Source: a virus
Length of the DNA: 64,000 bases
Virus record (IMG/VR): IMGVR_UViG_3300017971_000007
Strand: one strand, 5' to 3'
The position numbers and the translations under genes were made by a program. Below the pieces are notes generated by a model. That model did no database searches, was not told the DNA's origin, and saw only the letters and a list, made by a program, of their open reading frames with translations. Position 1 is the stretch's first letter. Each line of letters begins with the position of its first letter. Of this stretch, positions 38,231-60,394 are shown one piece after another.

Positions 38231-38302
38231 GTTTTCTCCTTTATAGCTCTTATACCTACACAAACGTTTATTTTTCGGGCGCTTGTGTGCTAACTTAGAC
38301 GT

Positions 38303-41300
38303 ATGCCTATTTCAAGTACAGAAATTAATAGTTTGATGGCCGGGCAGAACCAGATGTTCGGAACCGCCGTGTCTTCATTCGGTCCGATGGATGCTCCCGG
38401 AGTTAGCGAATACAATACCGGTACCCAGGCCGCTCCATCTATGATAGCTGGAGCAGCTACCTTCGGAGCTCCGATTGCCATGGGAATTGGGGGAATGATG
38501 GGAGGACCTATTGGCGGGATGTTGGACCCAACAACAGGAGCTCTTAGGGGATTTGGTAGGGGAGTTGGATGGAGATCTGGAGCGGGTTTTGGGGCGAATA
38601 TAGGGAATGTGTTTAGAGGAGGGGTAGGAGGAATAGCTAGGGGTGTTGGAATGGGGGCACTAGGATTCCTTCCAGGAGCGGCAATATACGGGGCTGCGAA
38701 CTATGCCGCAGGTCAGATGGTGGAAGGTGCCCAATTCCAAAACCAAATGGGTTCTTTTCTGCAAAGAAACTTCAGATTTACTAACCCAGCCAGCGAAACC
38801 GGATACGGGTTCGGGACCTCTCAGAGACAGCAAATAGGAAGGATGGTTCAGGAGATGGGCATCAAGGACGTGATGTCTACTCCCCAGGAATTGATGAACA
38901 TCATGAAGGGCGGGACCCAAATGGGGTTGTTCCGTGGAATTCAAGATGCCAGACAATTCAAGAACCGATTTAAGGAAGTCAAGGACACTCTCCAAGAGAT
39001 AGCTCAGACATTTAATAGTACATTGTCTGATGCCCTTCCGTTTCTAGGACAAGCCCGCCAAATGGGATTTTGGACTCCACAAGATATTACCAAGCACGCT
39101 GGTCAGGTTAGACAGGTACAATCTGCGACCGGCATGAATGCTCAACAGGTCCAACAAACAATGGCTGTCGGTGCTCAGATGGTTAGGTCAATAGGAGGGA
39201 CCGGTCAGCAGGGTGCACAGATGATGGCCCGGGCGCACATGATGGCGGGCTCGGCCGCATTTGGGAACGTTGTATCTGAGCGAGAACTTGGGGAGGCTGG
39301 ATTTGGGATAGGCGAGCAAGGGACCATGAACTTAGGCAATATGCTTGGTGGTCTAAGCGCAAGATTTGCCAGGGGCAGAACCGGACGATGGGCATTGGCT
39401 GCCATGATGAATAGAGAAGGTACTGGTTTAGACCCTGCTGCCCTAGCCGCATTTACGTCAGGCGGTCTTAGTATCGGAAGAATAGGTTCTCTAGCCAGAA
39501 GAAATGTTGGTGGGGGAAGAGCATACAAATTTGTGCAGAATGAGGAGGAACTCCGCGGACAACTCGCCCAAGCCGGCCCACAAGCTGCTTTGGGAATTGT
39601 ACAGTCTCTAGCCGGTCAAAGACTTTGGGGGGAGGGCGATAGAGACAAGTTGGTCACAAATAGAGTTATTCGGAGATTCTTTGGAGGAACCAAGAGGCAG
39701 GCGGAGATAATCGCCAAAATGGCTAGAGAGATGCCCCGTATTATGGCCATTCAATCTGCCCGTTCAGAATCTTCGTTAGACGCTCAAGAGCGTCAACGAG
39801 AGCAGATGATGAATAACACCTATGAGGGATTTAAAAGGAAGATAGGGCAATGGTGGAGCCAGAATGTAGATGGTCCGCTCCAACAAGCTGGAGCTGAAAT
39901 CAGCAATACTGTCGGCCGGTCCTATCAAAATTTTGTGGATAAGTTGACGGGACAGAGAGGAAGAGGGCTTGGTGTAAGCCCGGCTGCTGTCCGCTCGATG
40001 GTGAGGGCGGCTCAGACTGGAAATCTTGAGTACATCCAGGAGACGATGGCTGGTCCCGGAGCCATGCAGGAATTTCTTGGAGGAGCCGGCGGAGGTGTCG
40101 GGATGGAGGCTGCAGAAAGAATGAGGAACTTAGGGTTTAGCCCGACCCAAACAGAGCAGTTATTCGGGGCCAGGGGCATGGGAATAGCCAACGCCATAGC
40201 TCCTGGAATTGGTGGACTGGCGGTTATGGGAATGAACAAAATCGCTTCTGCCTTTGGATATGGACAGGAATTCGGTGCCGGACAGATAGATGAGATGCGC
40301 GGACTAACCCAGGGCAGTCGTGGAATTGTTGGAGCTGGATCTGCTAAGGCACTAGGATTCGGAACCACTGAGGCCATGACTGAGGCTTTGGGAGGTACTG
40401 GGGCCAGGAACATACAGACGTTTTTAAGAAGCTCAGAAGTCCAGCGCATGCGCATGCGCATGGGAATGGGGACCCTAAGCGAATCAGACAGGATGAAGTA
40501 TGCCCGGGGAGTGCTTCAGAGAGTTCAAGCTGGAGCTGCGGGAGAAGCTGCTCAAAGATTGGTTTCTGGATTAAGTGAGAGACAGGCTTTAGCCAGATTG
40601 ATGGCCGCTCAAGGAAAAGTTGGTGGTGAGTTCACTGCATTAGGTGATATGGGAGCTGGTATCGGAGAAGGAAATATAAGAGAGAGGATAGCGGAAGCAC
40701 AGGAACAGGCTGACCAGGGTCTGGCAGAAGTTCTTGGAGGAGGCTCGGCTATGGGCGGACTACTAGGAAGGGCAGGGGCTGCAATCGCCGGTTTAGCGAC
40801 TGCTCCATTTGGCGGCGCAGGTCTACTAAAAAGAGCGTTTGAAGGTGGCGAGAAACCTACCGAGGCCGGAATAGAGGAACTCAGAAAAGATCCACGCGGG
40901 GCTGAGGCATTCCGCCTTTTTCACAGCGCAGAAGAAGCTGAAAAAGATGGAGACATGGATAAGGCCAGGGCTTTAAGAGAGAAAGCCAGAGGTCGGATGA
41001 GTGAATTGGCCCAGGATACAGAATCTGGGATATCCAAGTCTGCTAGGTCAGCGGCTATTCTCTTAGGAGATGCCTCAGACCCGAGATCTAAGGCAGCTGC
41101 TAAAGCATCTGCTAATATCGGTCTCGGTATAAAAACATCCAACAGTCATATGTTTGCTAAGCAATTAGCTAGAAGGCGTAGGAGGGTAGTTGAGCAATTA
41201 GGCGGGGAGGGAGGACAGGGCAGGTTTAATCTGATGCAATTGGCTGGAAAAGATTCTGAGATTGGTAAGGCTTTGTCTAGTGCTCTGCGAGTGGGGACAG

Positions 41301-41980
41301 AGAAAGACCCTATAACAGCTAAAGAACACGTCACCCAGATGACAAACTTAGCCAGATTAGCCATAGAGGACCCCGACAAGGCTGCCAGGATGGCGGCTCT
41401 TCTACAACAAGAGGGTTTGGCTGGGACTGAATTGGAATACATTCTCTCTGGGGCCGGAAGAGTATCCACTATGGCAGAGTTGGGGATATCAGCAGAGGCC
41501 GAGGAAGGACTCGCCACTGGCGGAAGAAGGGGGTTAGGAAAAGCGCGAAAAGGTCTCAAGGCAATGCTCACTGGAATGGGACTTGGAGGCATAGATCAGA
41601 AGACGATAACAGGCCTCATACGTGGAGATGAGACCGCTAAGGAAACATTCACCGAGATAATGAGGTCTAAGAGATTCGGAGACCCAGATATCAAAAAATT
41701 CATTGAGGAGGCCCGCGGGGGACTGACAGAGGCGGAGATGAGAAGTAGAGGAGCTGGATTGCTTGTTGGTGGGGGAGTAACCACTCACAGTGAGCAAGTT
41801 GCCAAGGAAGCCGGTCTTAAGAAAGGCGAGCTTCATCTAACTGGCAGAGAAGGTTCTTCTAAAGGAATGCATGAGACATTAAAAGTTCACACTGTATATT
41901 TTAGGCAGATGGTAGATGCCCTAGGAAAAATATCCAGAAACGAGAAAATCACAAAGAAGGGTCCGGAAGGAGAAGAATAA
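38303..41980 (+). CDS. tape-measure-like virion protein
   Basis: 1225 aa, Gly/Ala/Met/Gln-rich and helical, with almost no Cys; heads the structural block before tube/hub-like genes. Confidence 0.6.
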   Translation: MPISSTEINSLMAGQNQMFGTAVSSFGPMDAPGVSEYNTGTQAAPSMIAGAATFGAPIAMGIGGMMGGPIGGMLDPTTGALRGFGRGVGWRSGAGFGANIGNVFRGGVGGIARGVGMGALGFLPGAAIYGAANYAAGQMVEGAQFQNQMGSFLQRNFRFTNPASETGYGFGTSQRQQIGRMVQEMGIKDVMSTPQELMNIMKGGTQMGLFRGIQDARQFKNRFKEVKDTLQEIAQTFNSTLSDALPFLGQARQMGFWTPQDITKHAGQVRQVQSATGMNAQQVQQTMAVGAQMVRSIGGTGQQGAQMMARAHMMAGSAAFGNVVSERELGEAGFGIGEQGTMNLGNMLGGLSARFARGRTGRWALAAMMNREGTGLDPAALAAFTSGGLSIGRIGSLARRNVGGGRAYKFVQNEEELRGQLAQAGPQAALGIVQSLAGQRLWGEGDRDKLVTNRVIRRFFGGTKRQAEIIAKMAREMPRIMAIQSARSESSLDAQERQREQMMNNTYEGFKRKIGQWWSQNVDGPLQQAGAEISNTVGRSYQNFVDKLTGQRGRGLGVSPAAVRSMVRAAQTGNLEYIQETMAGPGAMQEFLGGAGGGVGMEAAERMRNLGFSPTQTEQLFGARGMGIANAIAPGIGGLAVMGMNKIASAFGYGQEFGAGQIDEMRGLTQGSRGIVGAGSAKALGFGTTEAMTEALGGTGARNIQTFLRSSEVQRMRMRMGMGTLSESDRMKYARGVLQRVQAGAAGEAAQRLVSGLSERQALARLMAAQGKVGGEFTALGDMGAGIGEGNIRERIAEAQEQADQGLAEVLGGGSAMGGLLGRAGAAIAGLATAPFGGAGLLKRAFEGGEKPTEAGIEELRKDPRGAEAFRLFHSAEEAEKDGDMDKARALREKARGRMSELAQDTESGISKSARSAAILLGDASDPRSKAAAKASANIGLGIKTSNSHMFAKQLARRRRRVVEQLGGEGGQGRFNLMQLAGKDSEIGKALSSALRVGTEKDPITAKEHVTQMTNLARLAIEDPDKAARMAALLQQEGLAGTELEYILSGAGRVSTMAELGISAEAEEGLATGGRRGLGKARKGLKAMLTGMGLGGIDQKTITGLIRGDETAKETFTEIMRSKRFGDPDIKKFIEEARGGLTEAEMRSRGAGLLVGGGVTTHSEQVAKEAGLKKGELHLTGREGSSKGMHETLKVHTVYFRQMVDALGKISRNEKITKKGPEGEE

Positions 41981-41981
41981 A

Positions 41982-42227
41982 ATGGGTATCAGGAGATTAG
42001 ATGGAACTAATAAGATACCGGTTAGGAATGAGGCTTTCTTCAGAGTTCCTATCCGGGACGGGACGATTAGGACTGTTATTGTCAGGGACCTTCTGGCAGT
42101 CGAGGACCCTTATTTGAAATTAGTTCGGGCGAAGCTTTATACTGTTCTTACGGGGGATGATTTTAAGGCTGAGATAACGGACAGGTCCATAAAGGATGAC
42201 CTGATTAAATCAAATATCCAGATTTAG
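41982..42227 (+). CDS. hypothetical protein (structural operon)
   Basis: 81 aa, TAAAATG junction. Confidence 0.65.
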   Translation: MGIRRLDGTNKIPVRNEAFFRVPIRDGTIRTVIVRDLLAVEDPYLKLVRAKLYTVLTGDDFKAEITDRSIKDDLIKSNIQI

Positions 42228-42235
42228 GAGAGCGT

Positions 42236-42325
42236 ATGGAAGAGTTTCTGAAAAGTCTGGTTCCGTTGATAGAAGTTTTGACGGCATTGGCTATCACTGC
42301 CTTATTAATTAGTTGGTGTAAATAA
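42236..42325 (+). CDS. 29-aa membrane peptide (not in ORF track)
   Basis: AGGAG RBS; MEEFLKSLVPLIEVLTALAITALLISWCK*; TAATG overlap with next gene. Confidence 0.6.
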   Translation: MEEFLKSLVPLIEVLTALAITALLISWCK

Positions 42326-43758
42326 TGTCCACGTATATCGAAATGAGAACAGATGGATTCGCCAGAAACCTTGACTCAATTGTGGAGACCGAGGCGTTAG
42401 ATTATTCAGGGGTCAGACGTCCATTACGAGGCGTTGAGATAAAAGATGACACCTACGCGATCATCAAAGTGCTTCGTTCTGATGGGTCGGAAGTAGCTTT
42501 GACTGATGCCGGTTCCAAAAGAACGGCCTCTAGCGCCAGCGCTAGGTCCTTGAGGAATCTTAAATCAAACCCAAAGGCCGACTTAGACCAGCCCCCAGCG
42601 GGGTCGACCTTCAATTACAGCAATTTCATTGCCCAGAGAGTTGTGGATTCCAGGGCAGAGAAACAACAAATCATTGAAACATTTGGGGAGCCGTATATTT
42701 TCTTCTACGGAGAGAAGCCCAGGATTATGAATGTCCAGGGCCTTCTCATGAACACCGCGGATTTCAACTGGAAGAATGAATTCTGGAAGAACTACGAAAA
42801 TTACCTTCGCGGGACGAAGCTGGTGGAGCTAGATGCTAGAGTGTATTTCTACTTCGATGACCAGATTGTCGAGGGTTACTTATTAGATGCTTCAGCGTCC
42901 CATGATGCAAGTCTCCCTTATCAAGTTCCCTTCCAATTTACTTTGTTTGTTACGTCTCATACATATCTTAGTCTTATCGATGACACTGGTATGTATCCCG
43001 TCTCCGCAAATGTACGGGTTCCAGTCGATAATCTCAGGGACAAAGACAATTTAGATAACACCATCAAACAGCTTAGGGCCAGGATGGATTCCTTAAGACC
43101 GGATGAACTCCTTAGCACAACATGGGCAGTACAACAGGCGGCAGAAAAAGCTGCAGGGGGAGTAATCGGAAAACAGGCAATTATGAGTGCCGTCATAAGC
43201 GGATTGTCTGATTTTGAGGCAAAGACGGTAGCTTTTTTTGAGAATATCAAAACCTACTTCTATGGCCGTAGGATGGTTGTTCCGAAGGGAATAGCGGGTT
43301 CAGAAAATCTTACTTCTCGAGCCGAATTTGCGAATAAGGCAACATTTCCTGGAGAACCTATAGAGAGAGACTTGCCGCTGAGAACTTTCATCTCGGATAA
43401 TGTCGATGAATATATCGGTGGATGGGCCTATGACTTGCCAAAGTCTGTCATGGAGGAAGATATAGACCTAAACGAGATATACGAAGAAGATATTGAGAAA
43501 GCCTTACTAGCTCAGTTAGCTTCCATGGGAGTAGATATTAGCGACCCCACTCCGGCCCAGAATTGGAGGTCGAGCCTGACTCATACTCTGACAAAAACGG
43601 CGGATAGGATAGATTTCTATGCCGGTCTCGGTCGAGGCGTAACAACGAGTCTGAGAGAGAAGGCATTCCAGGCAGCGGATTTGGCTCAGTCCGTACCTAG
43701 CTTGCTACAAGCTCCTGTTGGGGCCTTAAAGGCTACGGTGCCGTTCTACATTCCTTAG
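42325..43758 (+). CDS. putative tail-tube-initiator/baseplate protein
   Basis: EKQQIIETFGE.YIFFYGE.PR....G.L..F.F.LFV tube-like beta pattern; position after tape measure. Confidence 0.5.
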   Translation: MSTYIEMRTDGFARNLDSIVETEALDYSGVRRPLRGVEIKDDTYAIIKVLRSDGSEVALTDAGSKRTASSASARSLRNLKSNPKADLDQPPAGSTFNYSNFIAQRVVDSRAEKQQIIETFGEPYIFFYGEKPRIMNVQGLLMNTADFNWKNEFWKNYENYLRGTKLVELDARVYFYFDDQIVEGYLLDASASHDASLPYQVPFQFTLFVTSHTYLSLIDDTGMYPVSANVRVPVDNLRDKDNLDNTIKQLRARMDSLRPDELLSTTWAVQQAAEKAAGGVIGKQAIMSAVISGLSDFEAKTVAFFENIKTYFYGRRMVVPKGIAGSENLTSRAEFANKATFPGEPIERDLPLRTFISDNVDEYIGGWAYDLPKSVMEEDIDLNEIYEEDIEKALLAQLASMGVDISDPTPAQNWRSSLTHTLTKTADRIDFYAGLGRGVTTSLREKAFQAADLAQSVPSLLQAPVGALKATVPFYIP

Positions 43759-43767
43759 GAGACGAAC

Positions 43768-44175
43768 ATGGAAGTTAGTAAACTAGCCGGGATATTCGAT
43801 GAGTTAGAGAAAATATCCGCGACTGTGTTAATGAAAGAGCTGACCCCGGCGGCCAAAAAGTTTATGAACAGGCTGACGGGATTTAGTGGTGTCGAAAAAC
43901 ATGCTCCTCCCACAGCCAGAAAATTGAAAAAGCTGTTAACAGGCCCAGGCTCCCCCCCTCTCACTACCGGAATCTCACACTCCAAATCCCTCACGGATAA
44001 GGCTGTAAAGGAGCAGAGCAGGAAGGTGTTTGAGGATGTATTATCCAAATCCGGTAAAGTTTATAAGAGAGGGGTCCCATCCAAGGCCGAAAAAATATTA
44101 CCGAAAAAAGTCAGCACAAAAGTAACAGAAGTCATGCCGATTTCACCGAGTATTGTGGGAAAGATTCCTGAATAA
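43768..44175 (+). CDS. basic protein with FDELEKI tag; putative internal head protein
   Basis: MEVSKLAGIFDELEKISA. Confidence 0.6.
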   Translation: MEVSKLAGIFDELEKISATVLMKELTPAAKKFMNRLTGFSGVEKHAPPTARKLKKLLTGPGSPPLTTGISHSKSLTDKAVKEQSRKVFEDVLSKSGKVYKRGVPSKAEKILPKKVSTKVTEVMPISPSIVGKIPE

Positions 44176-47100
44176 ATGGCACAAGGTCATCATCTAAGAA
44201 TTAGGTTGTTTTTGGAGGGCGTCGAAGTTCCTGTGGTCGCCACCTCCATACAGGTTGCGGCTAATGTCCCGGCTACAGCCTCCATTCAGGTAATAGCTAC
44301 AGATAAGGTACTGGACCTCCTCCCAAGAACAGTTATTCACCTTTTTTATTATGACTATGTGGAAGCTGGGCACGTGGCTCTAGACAGAAAGAAGGCCAAT
44401 CTCTCCAAAGAGAGTTACGAAGACTGGTTCAATTCCAGATACAAGCTCTTATTTATGGGGGAACTAGTAACTATAAAATTCCAGAAGCAGACCGGCCAGA
44501 GAGCAGTTGTACTAGAATGCGCAGATTTCTCCAATTACTGGGATACAACTTTCCAATACAACTTCAATGGGTCCTTGTTTGGTGGAAGAAGGAAGGCAGC
44601 ATTTATTGGGGCGAATAGTAATTTCTTTACAAGCCCGCTGGGTCACGGAACAGGAACTATTTCCAGGCTGTTGAATGGAAGGTCGGTTAACTTCCCAGAG
44701 CTCCGCGGTCTCCTAGCAGGAGTGGTGAGGATGCTAGAGGCGATTGGCGGGAGCTATTACGGTAAGAATACGTTTAGGGGATGTAACGATTTCACATCTA
44801 TCGCAGAACTAAGACTAAAAATCCTTCAACAAATTACTGCCGCTGAAAAAGATACTAGTACGGCGAAGCTATTCGCCAGGAAATCATTTAATGCCTGGAT
44901 GAATAGGTCCACTCAGAGTCTAGGGCAGTTAGTCAGTTTCAGGGGTTTAGTGAAGACGTGTTTTGGTTTCATCTTTCATGAAGTTTATCCTTGCCCGGTA
45001 GCCAAATATGTCCCAGCCGGAAACAGGTCAGAAACCAGAAAATGGAATGTGGGATTACATCAATCAAACAAATACGCCGGTTTTGCTGCAAAAGCTAGGA
45101 ATTCACTAAATCTAGTCAACACAGCCAGGGAATGGCTCGGGAATTGGAGACAGGCTGTAGCTGGAGACGGGAACCCTCCAGCGTTTGCATCGGCTTATGT
45201 TAGGTCGTGGATAGCGGCAGAAAAATCAGTCAATGAGCTGTATGCTCTTGGAGCGGCGACTGCACCAAAAGGAGCTCAAAAGGGACTGGCTATAATTAAG
45301 GAGAAAATGGGGAAGATAAGAGCCTTGTCTGTTAATAATGGCTTAATTAGCGCAAATTGGGGACCGGGGTACGGAACCTTAGATAGGAACTATTCCCAGA
45401 TAGATATCGAATATCAGGGCATCATAACTGCTCTGAAAGACATCCTCGGTATCAGATTAGCTAGGAGCAAAAACGTTACGGTAGATACCCAGCCGCGAGT
45501 CAATAATCAGATATTCAGGCCGGATGTATGGTTTACTGCCCCCCCAAGATGTAATGTTCTATTCCCCGAGATGTACAATCAGTTTGATTTTTCCAGACAA
45601 TATCTTCGGGAAGTGTCTAGGATAGAGCTTCAAACCCACAACGAAATTCTAGGCAATGATGCTTTATTTAATGGCAGATACTACGCTCCGAATGTGGAAG
45701 ATGTTCGTAGAGGAGCGAAATTAAGCTCCAGAAGATTTGCTCGCATCATTATGGACCACGAGCTCTATACTGGAATTATCCCTATGTTCGAGAATATGAG
45801 CGAGGCTAATTTATTTGCGATGCGTTCTGGTAAGGTGAATAAATCTGGCGCGAAAGTCAGCTATGCTCAGCGAGCGGTTAACTTCCAGTACTTCAAGTAC
45901 AGATTTGACAGTAGGGCAATGTCTGCCTCTGGAAGATTCAATCCCCAATTTGTAGCCGGATTCCCTTCTCTCATCATAGACAGACCGATGACTCAGAAGG
46001 ACTTATTAATTTCCTCGTTACCAACTGCAGAGCAGATAAAAGCTTTGGAGGATGCCGGAAAGACCGTCGGGGAAAATACCAGCAGGGGAGAAATTCTTAA
46101 GGAATTGGTAGGTCCGCAATATCTTGGAGTGTGCGCTTCGTTGTCCCATGTCGTATCTCAGGGCGGGGGAATCACGAGCTATCAATTCATGCAAGCGAGA
46201 GTGCATAGGGAGAGTACGGAATTTCTGGGGGTGGATAAGGTAGATACGTACAAGCAGGTCGGTCCAGGTATCACTGACACGATAGTTGCTACTCCAGAGG
46301 GAAGCCCTCCAAAAATAGGAGGGCGCGGCCCAAAAGGGGGAAAGATAACCAGAATTATTCCTATGTCATCTTTTGTAAAAGGAAGGATTTTCCCAGTTCT
46401 CGGTAATGGGACCCGTGTAATCATCGGCGAACTTTATCCAGAACCGACATATAAGCCGGCATATTTCGAGATTTTTCAAGACAGAAGCATAATGCTTAAA
46501 GCAGAAGCTTATTCTGTCAAAGAAGGGTATACGAGATATGTGAAATCCGGACAGGCAGATCTTCCCATGGAAGAGGCGGTGGCCCCGCCGTGGATTTGGG
46601 ATGGGTGGAGAGTTCCCAAAATCAACGAAACATATGATCAGATATTGGGAACGACTTCCATAACAGATATTTCTGGATACAGCGCGATGCAGACTGATGA
46701 ATCAGGAGCTCAAAGATTTTATGTAGGAGACGACCAACAAGCTGTAATCCAAGACCAGAACGATGTCTACGCATCTGGAAAAGGTAAAAGGTCTATTGCC
46801 TCCAAAACCGATACCAGGAGCCAGGAAATAAATAAGGCTAAGAAAAATAGCAAATCGCTGTTCCTAATGGATAACGAACTTACTGTAGAAAATTCTGTGG
46901 ATTATTTGGTCAGGGCCTATAGTTTTGTGAAGGCAAACAATCTGGATGTCGGGGATTTTCTTAAGTCGTATGGATGGCGTCCCGTGGCTACGATGGTTGA
47001 TATTCTTGGAGGCCAGGACCTTGAGATAAAACAGGTCACTAGAAAAGCGAGGAAGGTAGTAAAGCAGAAATTTCTGAAGAAGGAAGCCGTTGTCGTAACA

Positions 47101-47463
47101 TACGGTTTGGAGGAAAAAGACCCTATATACCCGTTTGAAGTGACTCCTAAGTCGTATCTCCCGAAGGATTTTAATACAGAGACTGAGGTCCTGGCCAAGG
47201 CTGTATACGGTACTAGGTACGTCACCAAGCTCGTAGACCAAATTGGATATGAGGCCGTAGGGAAAGAAGGATTTCACAGTCGCGCCTACGGAGATGTTGA
47301 GGACCTATTTGGGTTGGTAAGCCCGACAGTTAAAAAGGTCCTTCGGCTGTCTCAAGGGAAACAGAGAAAGGTAGCAGCTCGATTGGATGTGAGGAAGAGA
47401 AGAAGGGCGGCAGTTAAATTGTACGTGGCTGAATTAACACATTCCAAGGGATTGCTCGGGTAG
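44176..47463 (+). CDS. putative baseplate hub protein
   Basis: 1095 aa; N-terminal RLFLEGVEVPV..A.A.I..LFMGE..C.D pattern and FNP.FV.GFP.LI..G....L.H beta-barrel pattern; tail-module position. Confidence 0.5.
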   Translation: MAQGHHLRIRLFLEGVEVPVVATSIQVAANVPATASIQVIATDKVLDLLPRTVIHLFYYDYVEAGHVALDRKKANLSKESYEDWFNSRYKLLFMGELVTIKFQKQTGQRAVVLECADFSNYWDTTFQYNFNGSLFGGRRKAAFIGANSNFFTSPLGHGTGTISRLLNGRSVNFPELRGLLAGVVRMLEAIGGSYYGKNTFRGCNDFTSIAELRLKILQQITAAEKDTSTAKLFARKSFNAWMNRSTQSLGQLVSFRGLVKTCFGFIFHEVYPCPVAKYVPAGNRSETRKWNVGLHQSNKYAGFAAKARNSLNLVNTAREWLGNWRQAVAGDGNPPAFASAYVRSWIAAEKSVNELYALGAATAPKGAQKGLAIIKEKMGKIRALSVNNGLISANWGPGYGTLDRNYSQIDIEYQGIITALKDILGIRLARSKNVTVDTQPRVNNQIFRPDVWFTAPPRCNVLFPEMYNQFDFSRQYLREVSRIELQTHNEILGNDALFNGRYYAPNVEDVRRGAKLSSRRFARIIMDHELYTGIIPMFENMSEANLFAMRSGKVNKSGAKVSYAQRAVNFQYFKYRFDSRAMSASGRFNPQFVAGFPSLIIDRPMTQKDLLISSLPTAEQIKALEDAGKTVGENTSRGEILKELVGPQYLGVCASLSHVVSQGGGITSYQFMQARVHRESTEFLGVDKVDTYKQVGPGITDTIVATPEGSPPKIGGRGPKGGKITRIIPMSSFVKGRIFPVLGNGTRVIIGELYPEPTYKPAYFEIFQDRSIMLKAEAYSVKEGYTRYVKSGQADLPMEEAVAPPWIWDGWRVPKINETYDQILGTTSITDISGYSAMQTDESGAQRFYVGDDQQAVIQDQNDVYASGKGKRSIASKTDTRSQEINKAKKNSKSLFLMDNELTVENSVDYLVRAYSFVKANNLDVGDFLKSYGWRPVATMVDILGGQDLEIKQVTRKARKVVKQKFLKKEAVVVTYGLEEKDPIYPFEVTPKSYLPKDFNTETEVLAKAVYGTRYVTKLVDQIGYEAVGKEGFHSRAYGDVEDLFGLVSPTVKKVLRLSQGKQRKVAARLDVRKRRRAAVKLYVAELTHSKGLLG

Positions 47464-47498
47464 TTGCCATAACCTAAACACAGGGGTTAGAGTAAGAT

Positions 47499-47945
47499 AT
47501 GGATATAACAGCATTAGAGGGTTTGTTTGATGAGGTCATAAAGATTGCGGCATCTAAAAGGATGGCTTCGTATATGCAGTCACGAACCGGCACGAGACCA
47601 ATTCGAGTACAGACTCTTTTGGATAAAGAAAATAATCAAACACAACAACCTGATTTGACGATTCAGGAACCGGATACTCAACCTATAGATAAAGAAGCTG
47701 CAGAAGAGGGATGGCAAGAAAAGACAATCCGTCCCTTTGCCGTCGCCAGACCTTATGTGGCTAGCGCTGCCAAAGGAGCTGTCCCAGGTTCCATTATCGG
47801 TACGGTATTAGGCGGAGGGAAAGCCGGGAAGATGACTTTGATTGGAGCCGGGGTTGGAGCAGGTCTAGGAACTCTGGATGCGGCTTTGCAAAAATGGGCC
47901 AAAGATAATCCGAGACAAGCCAAAAAAGCTCTAAAAGGAGTATGA
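47499..47945 (+). CDS. FDE..KIA-tagged protein with glycine-zipper hydrophobic hairpin
   Basis: GLFDEVIKIAA; GAVPGSIIGTVLGG..IGAGVGAGLG. Confidence 0.65.
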   Translation: MDITALEGLFDEVIKIAASKRMASYMQSRTGTRPIRVQTLLDKENNQTQQPDLTIQEPDTQPIDKEAAEEGWQEKTIRPFAVARPYVASAAKGAVPGSIIGTVLGGGKAGKMTLIGAGVGAGLGTLDAALQKWAKDNPRQAKKALKGV

Positions 47946-48457
47946 TGAGGAAGGTAGCTGAACCTCCCCCGCCAAAGGGTGTATCCTCTAGTGAATGGGA
48001 CAGGATACTGTCCGGTCCTCCAAAGAAAGGAACTACAATGCCTGGAAATTTTGGACCTGGCGGAAAGTGGATTCATGACCGTGCTCACCGAATAATGTCT
48101 GAATCACCTGACACAAAAAAAGAGACTGCCTATGCTGTAGCTACTCAGCAGGCCCATAAAGTCGGAAAAAGTCCCAAGGGATTTAAGACGTCTGCTGGTG
48201 TACAGGAAGCCAAACAAAAGTATGGACTTCCAAAAAAAGAATATCAGAAAACCGCTATGCTGGCCGGATTCTTCGACGAGTTGAGTAAATTATCAGCTAT
48301 GGGGATGGATTTGAGGATGAAAGGTCCTGGAGGTGTAAAGAGGCCGCCATTTCCGACTGAGGGGTCCAAAGCATTAGCGAATCAAAAATTAAAGCAGACT
48401 TCCAAGCCTATAAGTCCGCCAAATGTAACTCTTAAATCAGTCACTACGAGGGTGTAA
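47942..48457 (+). CDS. basic protein with internal FFDELSKL tag
   Basis: KTAMLAGFFDELSKLSA. Confidence 0.65.
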   Translation: MMRKVAEPPPPKGVSSSEWDRILSGPPKKGTTMPGNFGPGGKWIHDRAHRIMSESPDTKKETAYAVATQQAHKVGKSPKGFKTSAGVQEAKQKYGLPKKEYQKTAMLAGFFDELSKLSAMGMDLRMKGPGGVKRPPFPTEGSKALANQKLKQTSKPISPPNVTLKSVTTRV

Positions 48458-48458
48458 T

Positions 48459-49004
48459 ATGACTGTTTCAGCAGAAAGATTTATTAACTTCATAAAACAG
48501 GCCAAGCAGGATAATCCCGGAGAAATGAGCGATGTCTCTGGAGAGCAGAACCCAGAGCCGCACGCTATCAAGTATCCAGAAGATGACAGCATGAACGGGA
48601 ATAGACCAGGTCAAGAGTCTCTCACAGGCGGCGCAGAGAGTGAGGCGCGGGAAGGAAAGACTGACTATCTTCGCGAGGCCTTCGAGAATTTTGATTCTGG
48701 TGCAAAGGAAACTGGAGATGTTCTAAACGAGGCCCTGGATAGTTTCGGAGATGAGAGCAACGTTCTGTCCAAACCTCAAACAGAAGTTGCTGGGGAGAAG
48801 TATAGTTCAGCAATAGGTGAGGCGTTTTTGGATGAGTTGTCCAGAATTAAGGAAGCTGGAGGATTGGTCGGTAAGATGCTGACGCATAATATCACTCCAG
48901 GTTCTGGTCCTATTCACAAGAGACTGGTGAAAGGTTTCAAAGGTTTAGGACAATTGGTGAAGTCTCAAGTTAAGCGTCACGGTGCGAAGGGCGCAATAGA
49001 CTGA
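48459..49004 (+). CDS. protein with FLDELSRIKEA tag
   Basis: FINFIKQA; AFLDELSRIKEAG. Confidence 0.65.
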   Translation: MTVSAERFINFIKQAKQDNPGEMSDVSGEQNPEPHAIKYPEDDSMNGNRPGQESLTGGAESEAREGKTDYLREAFENFDSGAKETGDVLNEALDSFGDESNVLSKPQTEVAGEKYSSAIGEAFLDELSRIKEAGGLVGKMLTHNITPGSGPIHKRLVKGFKGLGQLVKSQVKRHGAKGAID

Positions 49005-49007
49005 GAA

Positions 49008-49772
49008 ATGAACCCATTAGACGAAGCATATGAACTTCTCGAAAAAGAGGCTATGGCGAAAAAGCCTCTTACTCCACGCGCCCAGAAAGAAATTCAACTG
49101 TGGCATGACTGGAACAATAGCGGAAGAAAGCCTGATAAATTACGCCCGCTGTTAAAATCATTAGACCCTCTCATCAAAAACAAGCAGAGGTTGTACGAAA
49201 ATAGGTTGAGGGATATTCCTCCACCTGCTATCGCGGCGGAGTTCCAGGACCAGGCCGTAAACGCTATCAAGACCTTTGACCCGAATAGAGCTCAGCTTAA
49301 TACGTGGGTGAATAGTCAACTACGTAAGGTCAACAGATTTGTTGATACATACAGGAATACGGCGAGAATTGGGGAGAAGCGTATCAATCAAATAACTCAA
49401 TTCCAGAACGCGGAATCTCAACTAAAAGATGAACTTGGTAGATCCCCAACTGCATTTGAAATATCAGATTTCGCCAAACTTCCTCTTGGAGATGTCCAGA
49501 AGCTTCAATCGGAGATAAGGAGGACATATCCTACGAGTCAATTCGGCGATGCCAGTCCAGCGGCTGTAGTTCCTTCAAAAACAGATCATATCATGCGTCT
49601 TCTTCCTTATGAACTTACGCCGGAAGAAAACGCGGTGTTTGAGTATGTCTACGGAGTGGGAGGGAAACCAAGTCTCAGCACGAACGAGATAGCAAAAAAA
49701 TTAAATGTCAGCGCTCCAAAAATCTCAAGGCTGAAGCAGAATATCGCTAAAAAGTGGGGTGAATACGAATGA
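49008..49772 (+). CDS. RNA polymerase sigma-70 family factor (group 3, FliA/SigB-like architecture)
   Basis: Region 2 AIKTFDPNR..LNTWV, region 3 ELGRSPTAFEI, region 4 LTPEE..V...STNEIAKKLNVSAPKISRLK. Confidence 0.88.
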   Translation: MNPLDEAYELLEKEAMAKKPLTPRAQKEIQLWHDWNNSGRKPDKLRPLLKSLDPLIKNKQRLYENRLRDIPPPAIAAEFQDQAVNAIKTFDPNRAQLNTWVNSQLRKVNRFVDTYRNTARIGEKRINQITQFQNAESQLKDELGRSPTAFEISDFAKLPLGDVQKLQSEIRRTYPTSQFGDASPAAVVPSKTDHIMRLLPYELTPEENAVFEYVYGVGGKPSLSTNEIAKKLNVSAPKISRLKQNIAKKWGEYE

Positions 49773-49981
49773 CAAAAGCAGCCAGAGACGCAAGGCTTGA
49801 TGAATTAGAAAAAGCTAGTAAAGATTACGGAGAAAAGAAGCTGGAGCAGTTAGACTATGAAGCCCAGTTTCTAGAATCTGTAATCAATAGCAGAACCGGT
49901 GCCGGTCAGCTTGCTGATCAAGGGATATTCGGTTCTGTTGATTTACTGGCTGATTCGATAAAGCAATTTTTGGAGGGATAA
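49769..49981 (+). CDS. hypothetical protein
   Basis: 70 aa, ATGA coupled. Confidence 0.65.
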   Translation: MTKAARDARLDELEKASKDYGEKKLEQLDYEAQFLESVINSRTGAGQLADQGIFGSVDLLADSIKQFLEG

Positions 49982-50277
49982 TGACTGAACAACGTGACGA
50001 GAAAGTCGATGGCGGCGGTAGTTTCGTGATGACAGAAATGGAAGTCCTTCGTGTAAGATTAGCGACTTCCGAGACAGAGATAGTAGCGAGGCAGATAGAG
50101 AAGCATCAATCTGAAATTAAGTATCTGGCTCTGAGAATCAAGGAATTGAATCAAGAGCTATCAAAAAAGAAAGCGAATGAACAAGAAACTATTTCCTCTC
50201 TGTTCTTATCGAGAGGTCTTGGTAGTTGTAAGATAGTCGGTGTCAAGGCCAACATCATCTCATACGAAAAAATTTAG
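49981..50277 (+). CDS. coiled-coil protein
   Basis: 98 aa, GGAGG RBS. Confidence 0.65.
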   Translation: MTEQRDEKVDGGGSFVMTEMEVLRVRLATSETEIVARQIEKHQSEIKYLALRIKELNQELSKKKANEQETISSLFLSRGLGSCKIVGVKANIISYEKI

Positions 50278-50315
50278 TTCCTCCTTCGAGGTATCTCCTT
50301 TTACAATTAGATATT

Positions 50316-50606
50316 ATGGCGGTAACAGTACGAAGAAGAGATCCGTTAGAAGATAGGATAAGGGAGAATATCCTCCTAACCGGAGCATACGATAACTCAA
50401 ATTTAGTGTTCTATCTTCCGGAGTTAGCTGTCCATAATCCTCCCAAGCGACAGGTGAAAATTGTTCATTGTGGAAGATGGGTACAGCCTACAGAGTACGA
50501 GGTGTTGGAGATCGTTCCTGGGAGCGGATTGTATAATAGGATTAAATTGAGGTTCCCTCCGGGACCCACAAGTAGACTGTACGGACATTACGTTACTGCA
50601 GTCTAG
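50316..50606 (+). CDS. small beta-rich virion protein
   Basis: L.G..D.SN..F...G....EY......I..FPP....L.G.Y domain, similar to C-terminus of next gene. Confidence 0.6.
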   Translation: MAVTVRRRDPLEDRIRENILLTGAYDNSNLVFYLPELAVHNPPKRQVKIVHCGRWVQPTEYEVLEIVPGSGLYNRIKLRFPPGPTSRLYGHYVTAV

Positions 50607-50618
50607 AAGGAGTTTTAG

Positions 50619-52802
50619 ATGCCAGTTTATCCAGGACGTATTGACCAACGGTATGACATTAAAGGGTCCTTGAATGTAGACCAAGCCAAGACCCTGTCCG
50701 AAGAGAATGCTAGTACCGGTCCGGAGGTTTCAACTGGGACCGGTGACAGTATTACGATGGATGGCAGCGAAGCCACACTTGTCGATGCCGGGGCCACATT
50801 TACTGATGACATCATCGGTGATTTCATTACCATCGCAGGTGCTACTAACGGCGGTAATAATGGAACATTTATGGTGGAAAGTAGGGTTAGTGGGACTAGT
50901 ATCACATATACCAACGCCTCGGGCGTAACCGAGACGAGTTCTTTCACGTGGACTATCAATCGACCCTACTCTCTTGAAGACGACCTCAATTTTGAGAGAA
51001 CAGACAGAAAATTAATCAAAGGGACGACAAACTACTACGATGACGTTCCCACGTATCAGCGGCCAAGTGCTATCGGGACAGATGTTCCGGCGAATTTGAC
51101 GAATATCGCCGGAAACACTCTCGATGCCAAAACAGAAGTTATTCCAGTCAAGCAGCCTGGAATAAAACTTCGCCCGGATATCACAGACACAGACGGAAAT
51201 GTTCTTGTTTCTGATGAGACTTTTTCTACGACCAACTACCATTTCGTGGCAGACGATCTCGGTTCATTCATCACATTGACCGACGGTACGGCTGTCGGGG
51301 CCACCGGAACCTACAGAATCAAGACCGTGACTGACGGACAGACTGTCGAGCTCGAAGGCCTGGCGGCGACCGGTGCCGGAACAGTCACATGGAAACTTGA
51401 ATCTGATTTGAAAGAGGTACTGTCCAGCAGAAGTTACGCGGATGCGGTGGACCGGAGAGGAGTTCCGATTGCGGATTCCGGAGCATATGACGAAACGAAC
51501 TACGATGCTACGTACGTTGAGATCATAAACGCCAATCCTCTCGGGACTCCTGTAGAGGAAGACGGGGACATTATCTTCGGTCGCAGTTTTGGCGATGAGA
51601 AGGATTCTGGTTCTGGTAATGAAGGAACTAGATTCTTTGTCCAACTTCTGACCGGAGATAATGATGGAACCGCGACTGACAGTAGCCTGGAAGATATCTC
51701 AGGGAAATCGGGGACGGCAGCCAGTGTCACTAACGCTGCCAATACTATCACCGGAGTTGTCGGAGCCCAGCAATCGACAGGTACTGGGGATTCAGTAACG
51801 GCAGCTGATGGAAACAACAAACAGACTCTGGCTGATTCCGGGGCCACGTTCAGTGCCGCCGATATCGGGAGAGTCATTACCATCTCCGGAATGACCAACC
51901 CCAATAACAACGGCGCATTCCTTATCACTGATTATATCGATGCCAACACCATCAAATTTATCAATGCGAGCGGCGGGGCAGAAACTAGTGCCTTTACCTG
52001 GACAATCAATACCAGAGTTGCTACCGAGGCCGATATCGGTAGGTACATTACCGTCTTCGATACCGGAGTTGATGGAAATCAACGACACGCGCTCATTACG
52101 GCCTTTGCCGAAGGTCAGTACACTGTAAGCGGTTCGGCATTTGCTACCGACGCCAATGACGGTTCAATCAAATGGCAGCTTTCTCGTCACCCCGGAACTT
52201 GGGATTTCTACAACGGTGACAGATACCGTAAGGATGAAGTTCCTGAGACTGCTGGCAGAAGAATCCTCATCGGCGGGATTGTCGGTGATGCGGAATTGAC
52301 GGCCGACGTTTCAGAAATCAGGGAATTTCTGGGGGCCGCTGATGGGGATACTGCACCGTCACTGTCCAATACCGGCAACTACTACCCGTTCAGTGATATC
52401 CCCAATCCATCTGATTCTGATGTTGAGGAAGCTCTTAATATCCTGAATAGGGAAATCGGTTCCAGAGATTATAGCGGGACTATATTGACAGATGGACAGT
52501 CTGTCACGGACAGTCTCCAGGCTTTGTCTACTGCTATTGAGAGCGCGAATATGGTGAGGACTATCGAACGCCTGACTTCTGGAATTTCGAAGTACTCCTT
52601 GCATACTCTTCCTGGGAGTATCTCTTATACACTGGACGGGACGAATAATGGGCGGAACATGATCGTGGTTTGGAGAAAACAAATCAGGGTTCCTGGTTCT
52701 GTAGCTAATAACGACGACTATGAAGAATACAGCACAACTCAGATTCGCCCATTTGAAAACATCATCATCGGAGACGCTGTAGAATACTGGATCTATAACT
52801 AA
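50619..52802 (+). CDS. virion structural protein with repeated beta domains (fibre/decoration-like)
   Basis: 727 aa, Thr/Asp/Gly-rich; about 4 copies of F...DIG..ITI.G.T...NNG.F.I unit. Confidence 0.7.
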   Translation: MPVYPGRIDQRYDIKGSLNVDQAKTLSEENASTGPEVSTGTGDSITMDGSEATLVDAGATFTDDIIGDFITIAGATNGGNNGTFMVESRVSGTSITYTNASGVTETSSFTWTINRPYSLEDDLNFERTDRKLIKGTTNYYDDVPTYQRPSAIGTDVPANLTNIAGNTLDAKTEVIPVKQPGIKLRPDITDTDGNVLVSDETFSTTNYHFVADDLGSFITLTDGTAVGATGTYRIKTVTDGQTVELEGLAATGAGTVTWKLESDLKEVLSSRSYADAVDRRGVPIADSGAYDETNYDATYVEIINANPLGTPVEEDGDIIFGRSFGDEKDSGSGNEGTRFFVQLLTGDNDGTATDSSLEDISGKSGTAASVTNAANTITGVVGAQQSTGTGDSVTAADGNNKQTLADSGATFSAADIGRVITISGMTNPNNNGAFLITDYIDANTIKFINASGGAETSAFTWTINTRVATEADIGRYITVFDTGVDGNQRHALITAFAEGQYTVSGSAFATDANDGSIKWQLSRHPGTWDFYNGDRYRKDEVPETAGRRILIGGIVGDAELTADVSEIREFLGAADGDTAPSLSNTGNYYPFSDIPNPSDSDVEEALNILNREIGSRDYSGTILTDGQSVTDSLQALSTAIESANMVRTIERLTSGISKYSLHTLPGSISYTLDGTNNGRNMIVVWRKQIRVPGSVANNDDYEEYSTTQIRPFENIIIGDAVEYWIYN

Positions 52803-52854
52803 AAAAAGAAACGGTACGTGAGACGACCTCACCAGCTACCGTGTTTCTTTTTTT
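52801..52854. terminator. bidirectional terminator
   Basis: AAAAAAAGAAAC...GTTTCTTTTTTT stem between convergent genes. Confidence 0.75.
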
Positions 52855-52873
52855 GTCAGCCATTAATTCCGCA

Positions 52874-53083
52874 TCAGAGCAGGTGTTTCACCAGCTCTGA
52901 TGTTGTCTGGGGGAGTCCCTCCTCCCGTTCACCTGAGTGAACGGGGTTCGAGATCCCAGTTCCGCGCCATTTAAACCAGACTCCGTGGTTCTCGATGTAC
53001 TCTACATCCCAGATGCTGGTTGGCTTCCAATCCCGACCATTCAAATAATTTACAATTACCAAATTCATCAAAACTTTCTTCAT
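52874..53083 (-). CDS. hypothetical protein; antisense early-type cassette inside structural block
   Basis: AAGGAG RBS before ATG 53083; promoter motif at 53110-53137. Confidence 0.65.
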   Translation of the reverse strand: MKKVLMNLVIVNYLNGRDWKPTSIWDVEYIENHGVWFKWRGTGISNPVHSGEREEGLPQTTSELVKHLL

Positions 53084-53151
53084 TATTTTCTCCTTTTCTG
53101 ATTCATTATTCTTATACAGAAAAAGGTGTATATTTTTGCAAATAACGTTTC

Positions 53152-53181
53152 TTGACATAGGGAGATGCAGATTCGTAGTAT
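53152..53181 (+). promoter_or_regulatory. sigma70-like promoter
   Basis: TTGACA-N18-TAGTAT, 6 nt before ATG 53188. Confidence 0.55.
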
Positions 53182-53187
53182 CTCTCT

Positions 53188-53430
53188 ATGTTTTCTAAAA
53201 AAGCAGATCTCAGTTTCAATCAAATAAAACCCCTGAATCATAAGGGACAGCCTAACGAGGACTATCCAAAAGATAGAGTTTGCAAGTCCGGTCATGTAGC
53301 CGCTGAGGGTGCCGTATTCTATGACGTAGGTGGAGATGCACTACCCAGAAGACTTTGGGGAAAGTATTGTGAGTTTTGCGTAAAAGTGGCTCAGGCTAGA
53401 GCTAGACAACGTAGGAGTAATGATGTCTGA
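53188..53430 (+). CDS. small Zn-finger protein
   Basis: CKSGH...YCEFC. Confidence 0.65.
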   Translation: MFSKKADLSFNQIKPLNHKGQPNEDYPKDRVCKSGHVAAEGAVFYDVGGDALPRRLWGKYCEFCVKVAQARARQRRSNDV

Positions 53431-54091
53431 AAATAGAGGAGCAGGATTAAGAGAGAACTTTCTTCGGCTGCAATCTAATCTGGATTCTTTTTTCCAGGCC
53501 GGTGGAGGGGGGAAAGAGGATTTTAGAAGTTTCTGTTACAGACTACTAAGGAATTTTGAGAATGAGATTGTCAAGAACAGGAACCAAATAACCAAGCTAA
53601 AATCAGAGATCTCATTCTGTGAAGCCACGATGAAGGCCTGCGAGACCCAAGCTAATCTAATCGTCAGTATGGTGACGATTATGGCCAATACTCAGAAAAA
53701 AGGCCTTGCCCAAGAGAAAGCCAAAAAACAAGAGGACTATTTTGGAGATAGACCCCTTACAGATAAGGAGATGCTGGAGAAGGTTTGTTCCTGCTTGTGC
53801 CAGGATGAGGAGGACATGGCCAAATGTGACTGTCCCTGCCATGATGGGAAGCCATGTGGTAACGAAGAGTGTAAGGTCTGTTATTCTCCCGATAAAAGTG
53901 GCAAAATTATTGTGTTGAGGGATAAAGCCAAGAAGAAAACTAAGAAAAAGACCTCGACAAAGAAAACTTCCAAAAGGAAGAAGAAATGCCCGGAGGAATC
54001 ACAAACAAAGACATCGAAGACGGATCTATCATCGATGCCGAAGAACTCGCCTCAGACGGAACCTCAGAGTACAACACCGGGGTCTCAGTAG
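53420..54091 (+). CDS. coiled-coil/Cys-cluster/Lys-rich protein
   Basis: CSCLC..CDCPCH..C...C..C cluster; KKKTKKK tail. Confidence 0.65.
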   Translation: MMSENRGAGLRENFLRLQSNLDSFFQAGGGGKEDFRSFCYRLLRNFENEIVKNRNQITKLKSEISFCEATMKACETQANLIVSMVTIMANTQKKGLAQEKAKKQEDYFGDRPLTDKEMLEKVCSCLCQDEEDMAKCDCPCHDGKPCGNEECKVCYSPDKSGKIIVLRDKAKKKTKKKTSTKKTSKRKKKCPEESQTKTSKTDLSSMPKNSPQTEPQSTTPGSQ

Positions 54092-59847: not shown

Positions 59848-60394
59848 AGAATTCCATATCGAGAAAGGTAAGCAGGCCACGGTTGACTCATTTTTCGATG
59901 AGTTAGAGAAAATATGCGGAGTAGATTTGTCAGCGAAAATTTTTCTGAGAGAAAAAATAGCTGGGGTAGGTTTGGATATACACGGATATAGAAAAGATCC
60001 GTTCAATCCTCCGAAAAAACTAGTAGATGTGTATGAAGGAGACACTAGTTCTGCCAGAATAGATTGGCAGGACAATAACAGACAAAAAACTAAATTCGAT
60101 AACGAGTCTGGTCGCGGATATAAATTACATCTGGACAACCTACTAGGAGTGAGATGGGATAAACGCGATTTTTCTAGATTCAGCCAACCCAGTAAGTTTT
60201 TAGATAAAGCTACAGATGAGGCTTATACTGACACTCCCGTAAGCAGGAATCTATCTAGAAATGAAGTGCGTGATTTGATTCAGGATTATTCAAACAGGTC
60301 TGGAAACCATCCATATGAAAAGGCCTTCGTGAATAAAGCTAAGGAACTACTCAAAAACAGAGGCGTGAAATTTATCAGATTGGAATATGAATAA
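59828..60394 (+). CDS. FFDELEKI-tagged protein; putative injected head protein
   Basis: GKQATVDSFFDELEKIC..EKIAG. Confidence 0.65.
   Translation: MPSEDRKEFHIEKGKQATVDSFFDELEKICGVDLSAKIFLREKIAGVGLDIHGYRKDPFNPPKKLVDVYEGDTSSARIDWQDNNRQKTKFDNESGRGYKLHLDNLLGVRWDKRDFSRFSQPSKFLDKATDEAYTDTPVSRNLSRNEVRDLIQDYSNRSGNHPYEKAFVNKAKELLKNRGVKFIRLEYE

Follow-up and report, generated by a model that had tools for sequence, protein, structure and literature searches.

Why does a phage carry a sigma factor gene in the middle of its structural genes, and which RNA polymerase (RNAP) would such a sigma factor serve? The question is raised by a sigma-70-family gene at positions 49008–49772 (plus strand) of a 64,000-nt stretch of viral DNA, IMG/VR record IMGVR_UViG_3300017971_000007 (the window, meaning this stretch at its full length). 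Our best overall explanation, to which we assign a probability of about 0.5, is that the gene encodes a packaged sigma factor of the phage's own RNAP, which reads promoters containing GTATAAG and carries a leader related to virion loading. Specifically, the sigma factor would be the promoter-specificity subunit of the phage RNAP and the reader of the GTATAAG promoters. The holoenzyme would be produced late in infection, be packed into the particle and enter the next cell together with the DNA, where it would start transcription. The acidic N-terminal helix of the sigma factor would be a lineage-specific add-on related to FFDELEKIA, a peptide carried by neighbouring proteins (the tag); its likeliest role would be virion loading, which is the weakest step of the scheme.

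The gene encodes 254 amino acids (aa) with MNPLDEAYELLEKEAMAKK as its start, and the open reading frame (ORF) was confirmed at exactly these coordinates. Pfam Sigma70_r3 (PF04539) matches the protein at 27.0 bits (cut-off 25.3), Sigma70_r4 (PF04545) at 20.1 bits, below its cut-off of 24.1, and PHROG 351, 'RNA polymerase sigma factor', at 3.6e-8. A profile of 39 homologues (A2) aligns with SigA, RpoS and RpoD through regions 2.1–4.2 (E ~1e-15), covering residues 375–598 of E. coli sigma-70. The AlphaFold2 model has a predicted local distance difference test score (pLDDT) of 84.9 and contains the helices of domain 2, domain 3 and domain 4 together with a disordered 3.2-type linker; its best Foldseek matches are all sigma factors.

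Each domain can be placed on the plus strand. A region-1.2-like helix and domain 2 (aa 23–116; 49074–49355) are defined by the profile alignment and the AlphaFold2 model: query residues 48–120 fall on domain 2 of SigA, RpoS and RpoD, the modelled helices span residues 42–116, Foldseek agrees, and the stretch FDPxxxxxLxTW corresponds to regions 2.2–2.4. Pfam Sigma70_r2 gave no match to the window sigma itself, and its relatives score 13.5–21 bits. Domain 3 (aa 123–169; 49374–49514) is identified by PF04539 above cut-off, by the profile alignment and by the model, and is annotated on 21 of 22 homologues. The low-confidence linker that follows (aa 170–190; 49515–49577; pLDDT ~50) has the position of the region 3.2 'finger'. 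Domain 4, a helix-turn-helix (aa 191–253; 49578–49766), stays below the PF04545 cut-off but is recovered by the profile, which aligns to region 4 of SigA and RpoS and reaches region 4.2 of RpoD and RpoS, and by model helices at residues 191–253 with pLDDT >90. Curated NCBIfam-type subfamily models (RpoD/SigA, SigB/F/G and ECF) all score far below their cut-offs. The window sigma is a complete but divergent sigma-70-family factor with regions 2, 3 and 4, outside every curated subgroup. The original prediction of a genuine sigma factor amid virion genes, right after three tag-bearing ORFs, is borne out by Pfam, PHROG 351, the profile, AlphaFold2 with Foldseek, and a motif scan for the tag.

The promoter motif proposed in the same prediction is real. 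The bipartite form, AAAAATA-N10–14-GTATAAG, has six sites in the window against none expected, ahead of non-structural genes, and GTATAAG by itself occurs 18 times against 5.9 expected. About 13 of the GTATAAG sites are intergenic and lie 17–30 nt ahead of a ribosome-binding site and start codon. The sites face a plus-strand block of non-structural genes at 1–18 kb, a minus-strand block at 18–38 kb, and a lone minus-strand ORF at 52874–53158; none faces a virion gene within the window, and the plus strand has no GTATAAG between 14210 and 64000. The leftward non-structural block has an AAAAATA-N13-GTATAAG promoter-like site, found by motif match, at 38249–38275 (−). Exact matches of the same class lie at 10084–10109 (+), 14191–14216 (+), 35645–35671 (−), 37261–37285 (−) and 53111–53137 (−), and sites with the −10-like element only at 22898, 25847, 30989, 33114 and 35945, all on the minus strand.

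The element recurs in related phages. It is present in relative G001, at 57% GC (the window has 44% GC), and is the top non-Shine-Dalgarno word in the upstream regions of relative G006. In G002, 17 GGTATAAG sites were counted against one for the control. Salmonella phage Arash has 30 GGTATAAG sites on the minus strand, which carries non-structural genes and tRNAs, and one on the plus strand (control 2–3). The A-rich box upstream is confined to the lineage of the window. Many sites read TGGTATAAG, an extended −10 form with an invariant G where bacterial promoters have T−7, a form that would fit a sigma-70-type reader and not a sigma-28 layout. The likeness to sigma-28 promoters that had been drawn earlier does not hold: membership of the FliA/WhiG (sigma-28) family was rejected, with TIGR02479 scoring 32.7 bits against a cut-off of 189.6, and TATAAG with a frequent upstream TG has an extended −10 look.

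The sigma gene itself stands outside this promoter class. It lies in an uninterrupted virion operon of 14.5 kb (38303–52802, +), which shows continuous coding, has no GTATAAG promoter on the plus strand and is closed by a bidirectional terminator at about 52797–52850. Generic sigma-70 promoter and terminator scans from 37500 to 54000 remained at chance level. The sigma start lies 3 nt past the stop of the preceding ORF (48459–49004), and the sigma stop overlaps the next start as ATGA. The gene belongs to the late/virion class: it is within the virion operon, is coupled on both sides, and has no early-type promoter on its strand. The proposal that the sigma factor is made late is in keeping with a late-type virion operon, the absence of a promoter of its own and translational coupling on both sides.

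Two gene classes can be distinguished: non-structural genes stand behind GTATAAG, and virion genes, RNAP and sigma are in operons without it. In G001 the RNAP operon resembles the sigma operon in that its own strand shows no GTATAAG promoter. This arrangement bears on what the enzyme could drive. If the RNAP and sigma factor drove the class without GTATAAG, they would need to transcribe themselves first. If they drive the GTATAAG class, they must be present when the DNA enters, and would therefore have to be packaged, by the logic known from N4 and phiKZ.

Which core enzyme the sigma factor would use can be approached through its relatives. Homologues comprise 22 metagenomic proteins at 39–61% identity and 28 loci on viral contigs of 18–210 kb; the only cultured matches are Gp10 of Arash (28% identity) and proteins of Vibrio phages D69, D148 and D181, and a megablast of the sigma region against phage genomes gave no match. 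The position of sigma in the virion module is kept in the 28 loci, in the conserved order of a ~75-aa protein, a ~450-aa protein (Arash gp6-like), an 1100-aa LRLFLEGVEVPV protein, small tag proteins or large polyvalent enzymes, sigma, and a helical ~70-aa ORF. A fused bacterial-type beta-beta' RNAP is encoded by all eight of the eight relatives that are at least 64% complete, and by Arash. The phage beta-beta' open frames span 2067–2594 aa, and the Arash enzyme is split into Gp206 and Gp216. In G001 the RNAP has Rpb2_3, Rpb2_6, Rpb1_2, Rpb1_3 and Rpb1_5 domains and an intein. The phage RNAP aligns with residues 179–464 of E. coli beta', a range that we take to include the clamp coiled-coil (clamp helices), the docking site of sigma region 2.

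By gene content, the window phage appears to be a member of the 'mReC' phages, tailed phages of 130–210 kb with a single-chain bacterial-type beta-beta' RNAP, for which the sigma factor would be a signature gene. The clade was described as 100–200-kb tailed phages with deep-branching beta and beta' RNAP genes (Weinheimer & Aylward 2020, PMC7481178), in a paper with 0 occurrences of 'sigma', 'virion' and 'promoter'. The phage group is the same, and the sigma factor, its position in the virion module and the promoter class are additions here.

The original prediction had a different partner in mind: the sigma factor would be packaged, its leader cleaved by a prohead protease, and host core redirected to AAAAATA-N12-GTATAAG promoters. 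In keeping with that, the sigma profile is closest to group 1/2 sigmas, which bind bacterial core, the promoter has a −10-like TATAAG, and the homologue was detected by Arash mass spectrometry. On the other hand, every sufficiently complete sigma-bearing genome encodes a bacterial-type RNAP, and in Arash no virion protein is detected more often than this enzyme; phages of 44–57% GC and a Salmonella phage share one −10-like element, a sign that its reader is phage-borne; neither a protease nor evidence of cleavage was found; and leaderless sigmas coexist with the motif. We regard this version as improbable. Redirection of host core gives way to a pairing with the phage RNAP, which is probably the partner given the beta-beta' enzyme of the near-complete relatives and Arash.

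Evidence on packaging comes from Arash. Its sigma homologue (Gp10; E 1e-14 to 5e-19) occupies the same place inside the structural-gene block, and Arash resembles the window's clade in encoding a beta-beta'-type RNAP and in having GGTATAAG promoters for non-structural genes; its sigma and RNAP were detected in virion preparations. In the published virion mass spectrometry, Gp10 has 100% coverage with 24 peptides and 467 spectra, the RNAP chain Gp206 is the most-detected protein with 3516 spectra, and Gp216 has 1210 (PMC10585845); the authors mention early transcription as one possible use. We computed spectra per residue and obtained 2.0 for sigma, 2.3 for Gp206, 2.0 for Gp216, 2.4 for the adjacent helicase Gp217 and 4.3 for the major capsid protein, with annotated metabolic enzymes at 0.3–1.4 and several bona fide structural proteins at 0.5–1.0. 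Packaging of the sigma factor in the virion seems somewhat better than an even bet. The packaging claim is supported indirectly, by the Arash homologue in virion preparations; the preparation is also rich in metabolic enzymes, and the Arash sigma is leaderless.

Alternatively, the protein could be an ordinary intracellular sigma factor, unpackaged, that works with the phage RNAP or host core to activate genes of the middle or late period. Its location in the virion block would then be historical, and its detection in Arash a carry-over of abundant protein. Most phage sigmas act in this way (established; review PMC13282480), and the Arash virion list holds many clearly non-structural enzymes. 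We consider this possible but less likely, since the sigma and RNAP operons are both without the sole recurrent promoter class, so that self-transcription would be needed first if the pair drove late genes, and since the Arash sigma spectra per residue are on par with both RNAP chains and above those of every annotated metabolic enzyme.

If the sigma factor is packaged as part of a phage holoenzyme, its N-terminus is a candidate for the loading signal. The leader (49008–49088, +), defined by AlphaFold2 and homologue alignments, consists of an acidic helix (aa 3–16, MNPLDEAYELLEKEAM) and a basic linker (aa 17–27); behind it, the sigma body begins with a conserved E-x-x-(L/M)-W. Residues 3–16 are modelled as a helix with pLDDT ~65, and the net charge is about −4 over aa 1–16. 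The pattern NPxDE(A/F)LxxL...(L)EK(E/Q/L)(G/A/S)(F/A)A is kept in about 30 homologues, and K13 is invariant in an alignment of 23 sequences (A1). An internal start at Met16, which would leave the leader untranslated, was rejected on the grounds of protein-level conservation of the leader and of homologues without Met at that position. That the leader is a virion-loading peptide is a tentative proposal, which we hold at somewhat under even odds.

The neighbouring proteins carry a much clearer peptide. A scan for [FLIVM]DE[LVIA]x[KR][ILVE] matched only five window ORFs, all in the plus-strand virion block, whose tags fit the form [F/L][F/L]DE[L/V]x[K/R][I/L]. Three lie directly upstream of sigma: ORF 47499–47945 (148 aa; tag at aa 4–22, LEGLFDEVIKIAA, 26.1 bits), ORF 47942–48457 (171 aa; internal tag at aa 104–122, LAGFFDELSKLSA, 28.4 bits, behind a 'PGxxGPGGKWIHDRAH' domain) and ORF 48459–49004 (181 aa; internal tag at aa 118–135, GEAFLDELSRIKEA, 19.7 bits). 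The other two are ORF 43768–44175 (135 aa; aa 4–22, LAGIFDELEKISA, 27.1 bits) and ORF 59828–60394 (188 aa; aa 16–33, DSFFDELEKICG, 26.3 bits). A profile of the tag scores 18–31 bits on the five window ORFs and at least nine G001 proteins, and describes a strong, specific motif, FFDELxKIA, placed at N-termini or behind a 'GPGGKWIHDRAH' domain. The protein of ORF 47499 has a C-terminal glycine zipper and a weak likeness to the P22 gp7 ejection protein. Homologues of this ORF at L011:8412–9989 and L013:4816–9201 start with M-EK(D/I)(A/G)V, which matches the latter half of the tag; it is as though FFDEL could be dispensed with, or as though this start were equivalent to an end produced by processing.

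The tag is also found on an SNF2 helicase, and a degenerate form occurs inside SNF2-NUDIX-LigD polyvalent proteins just before sigma. One such protein of 1460–1560 aa (SNF2 helicase, NUDIX and LigD_N) directly precedes sigma at L014:5311–9993, and likewise in L015 and L013; in L014 it has a tag-like LITDLEKEAA just before the helicase domain. By its domains, a protein of this type looks like injected multi-enzyme cargo. A wider scheme, in which the sigma factor and injected enzymes (SNF2 helicase, LigD-type ligase/phosphoesterase and NUDIX) would all be loaded via an exchangeable N-terminal cargo peptide, with the sigma factor in a packaged beta-beta' holoenzyme reading GTATAAG early promoters, is in our view rather doubtful.

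How the sigma leader relates to the tag can be addressed from the side of the leader. Among the 25 best non-sigma matches of a hidden Markov model (HMM) of sigma leaders, about 12 are tag sites, at 2–10 bits. The model's best non-sigma match is a small ORF at L052:17517–17897 (G001 137517–137897), which scores 10.4 bits (E 0.05), has the N-terminus AFLSELSEIEKQGFAPL and is coupled to the end of the G001 RNAP gene. The likeness of leader and tag appears to be real at a Phi-E-K-x-A core, but it is weak and not significant alone. That same match, together with the tag on the SNF2 helicase, would also suit a purely intracellular function, in which tag and leader both serve as helices that dock onto one partner, such as the phage RNAP, and RNAP would have as its accessory factors sigma, the SNF2 (RapA-like) helicase and the product of the small ORF that follows the RNAP gene. 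This seems to us quite improbable: many tag bearers are tiny and have glycine zippers typical of ejection or membrane proteins, the tag bearers adjoin the hub and other virion genes, and the scores are weak.

Leader and tag are also absent together in some relatives. The leader is missing in the sigmas of Arash, D69 and L029–31, and tags are missing in the leaderless-sigma sequences (for Arash, 117 kb examined), a joint absence that fits a linked system. In these two respects Arash is unlike the window, and it also has a split RNAP.

A second case is offered by G006, whose sigma has a basic 23-aa N-terminal peptide, KVRAHIRRTAGGTPTIVKAHTRK, in place of the acidic leader. The peptide is 65% identical (E 3.5e-5) to the start of a LigD-like phosphoesterase-ligase whose gene is four genes away, a match that is unique in the proteome of this 183-kb genome (ORFs L025:4676–6499 and L025:9893–10792). 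The form common to sigma and the LigD-like 3'-phosphoesterase/ATP-dependent DNA ligase is KV(K/R)AHxRxxAGxPTIV(K/R)AHxRK. G006 is an independent second case of a sigma factor and a virion-module enzyme with a common N-terminal peptide, and supports the idea of modular targeting peptides. In G006, a GNAT acetyltransferase gene lies directly before sigma.

For an unpackaged sigma factor, the N-terminal helix could instead be a mini region-1.1-like autoinhibitory helix, or a dock for the 70-aa protein encoded directly behind sigma. The acidic charge of the leader and its lack of a match to the tag profile are in line with such a role. So is the small ORF itself (49769–49981, +), which is conserved and helical, is coupled to sigma by ATGA as in sigma/anti-sigma pairs, and follows sigma in at least 15 related loci (alignment A3), including lineages without the FDEL tag. 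Judged by position and conservation, it is a candidate sigma partner, anti-sigma factor or sigma chaperone. The basic peptide of G006, common to sigma and a ligase, is a misfit for a region-1.1-like function and argues against that role for the leader.

Several observations weigh against a packaged phage holoenzyme with a loading leader. On the packaging side, the evidence is all by homology at 28% identity (Arash Gp10). The Arash preparation had a sucrose gradient as its sole purification; 116 of 272 proteins were detected in it, ribonucleotide reductases and kinases among them, and its authors allow for carry-over of abundant proteins (PMC10585845). On the promoter side, G007 and Vibrio phage D69 show no enrichment of GGTATAAG, and TATAAG comes close to the −10 consensus found universally, which would allow these promoters to be read by host sigma-70. 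The sole plus-strand GGTATAAG of Arash, at 11588–11595 (L001:8680–8700), lies 4 nt before the gp9 start and directly upstream of gp10. This possible promoter, which sets Arash apart from the window and is in favour of an ordinary intracellular sigma, may let sigma be expressed early or in an autoregulated manner, or give rise to a leaderless transcript. Arash also differs from the window in its second sigma gene. Such a gene, more canonical than the one studied here, is carried by Arash (120974–121165, +; region 2 at 42 bits) and G001 (9247–9405, +; region 4 at 66 bits); G002–G004 do not have it, and no homologue was seen in the window.

Further points against this reading concern the leader. 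An HMM of the neighbours' tags, run on all ORFs, scores the window sigma leader below −1 bit, and BLAST of the leader against the window proteome gave nothing significant, with weak high-scoring segment pairs on four of the five tags. The statement that sigma carries the tag was rejected as worded and is kept as 'weakly related': what remains of the likeness first proposed is the shared Phi-E-K-x-A core, to which the reverse profile adds the tag sites that it picks. The tag was also sought on the phage RNAP and none was found; the 'EEGFA' at the RNAP N-terminus was rejected as a tag, being the conserved beta N-terminus. Within ±10 kb of sigma in 31 loci, tag and leader co-occur imperfectly, several loci having a leader and no strict tag. 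Because the Arash sigma is leaderless, the leader is needed neither for the pairing of sigma with its promoters nor for the mass-spectrometric signal, and the view that the leader is a requirement fails on a phage with 30 GGTATAAG sites, a combination of leaderless sigma and persisting motif that the original prediction had itself named as grounds for refutation. Finally, no prohead protease of the Peptidase_S77/S78 families was found in five related genomes (the S77 control matched nowhere), and proteolytic cleavage of the leader, as first proposed, is unsupported.

A packaged phage holoenzyme would have precedents in part. The virion RNAP (vRNAP) of N4, the multisubunit vRNAPs of phiKZ and AR9, gp66 of the crAss-like phage phi14:2 and the P23-45 RNAP fused to a tape measure protein (TMP) are likewise transcription machinery encoded among late/virion genes, packaged, injected and used at host-independent early promoters. 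Those virion RNAPs are without a canonical sigma-70-family subunit, and N4 vRNAP is a single-subunit enzyme, whereas here a close bacterial-type beta-beta' fusion occurs with a recognisable sigma factor (domains 2, 3 and 4) whose packaging is predicted. As a variant of virion-delivered transcription machinery, the window sigma is plausible but unproven. Phage-specific promoters are also served by the sigma-family factors T4 gp55, SPO1 gp28/gp34 and phiEco32 gp36. Those late sigmas are made early or in the middle phase from promoters of the previous RNAP form and act on host core; in contrast, the window sigma is in a late virion operon and its clade encodes its own core enzyme.

The peptides have a counterpart in the capsid targeting sequence of T4 (IPI-III) and in encapsulin cargo peptides, which are likewise short peptides on otherwise unrelated virion-linked proteins, at the N-terminus or at domain junctions. 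Unlike in those systems, there is no sequence relation, no evidence of a protease or of cleavage, and the leader matches the shared peptide weakly. Moreover, the neighbourhood here is one of tail hub and ejection proteins, whereas the T4 system belongs to the head core.

According to a review, phage multisubunit RNAPs (phiKZ and AR9) are without sigma homologues, and phage sigmas occur in RNAP-less phages and act on host core (PMC13282480). The known multisubunit enzymes have lost a recognisable sigma and the known sigmas hijack host core; this clade has both a core of near-bacterial type and a sigma, their genes lying amid those for virion proteins. A literature search on packaged sigma factors or mReC transcription turned up the Arash proteome table and nothing more. 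The literature searched contains no description, as such, of a clade that joins a near-bacterial core, a recognisable sigma and a simple promoter and has both proteins in a single virion proteome. A hint is already in print, since Gp10 and RNAP appear in the Arash paper's list of virion proteins and early transcription is raised there as one possibility; what this analysis adds is synteny across the clade, the link to the promoter, the reasoning from operon structure and the modular peptides at the N-terminus.

If the holoenzyme is indeed packaged, it would be the first sigma-dependent RNAP delivered in a virion; in effect, the particle would carry its own complete copy of the bacterial machinery for transcription initiation. 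It would provide a compact orthogonal bacterial-type transcription system of one core chain, one sigma and one 8-bp element, and would have implications for the ancient origin proposed for the mReC polymerase. Enzymes could then be loaded into tailed-phage particles by a sequence-addressable route, defined by the shared peptides. The cultured members, Arash and Vibrio phages D69, D148 and D181, make direct testing possible.

The remaining genes around sigma are largely anonymous. Searches of the neighbouring proteins against Pfam, PHROG and NCBIfam named almost none of them; ORF 55280 matches PHROG 1645, 'virion structural protein', at 9.5e-63, and ORF 60394 has an immunoglobulin (Ig)-like tail domain. 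The 1095-aa protein encoded just ahead of ORF 47499 (44176–47463, +), which has a conserved LRLFLEGVEVPV N-terminus, keeps its place in nearly all relatives. In an ESM-Atlas feature search (0.93, with few shared features) it resembles a baseplate hub (Mu gp44/GpP-like), which is a lead only. The 70-aa ORF behind sigma contains RLDELEKAS, a weak tag-like stretch (6.1 bits).

Downstream of the sigma operon, a second virion operon runs from 53188 onwards on the plus strand. Just before it, at 53152–53181 (+), a perfect TTGACA is followed by an 18-nt spacer and TAGTAT, a site that may be a host-type late promoter. The bidirectional terminator at 52797–52850 lies directly upstream of this site. Between the two plus-strand virion operons, the lone minus-strand ORF at 52874–53158, of 94 aa, has its own AAAAATA-N13-GTATAAG promoter.

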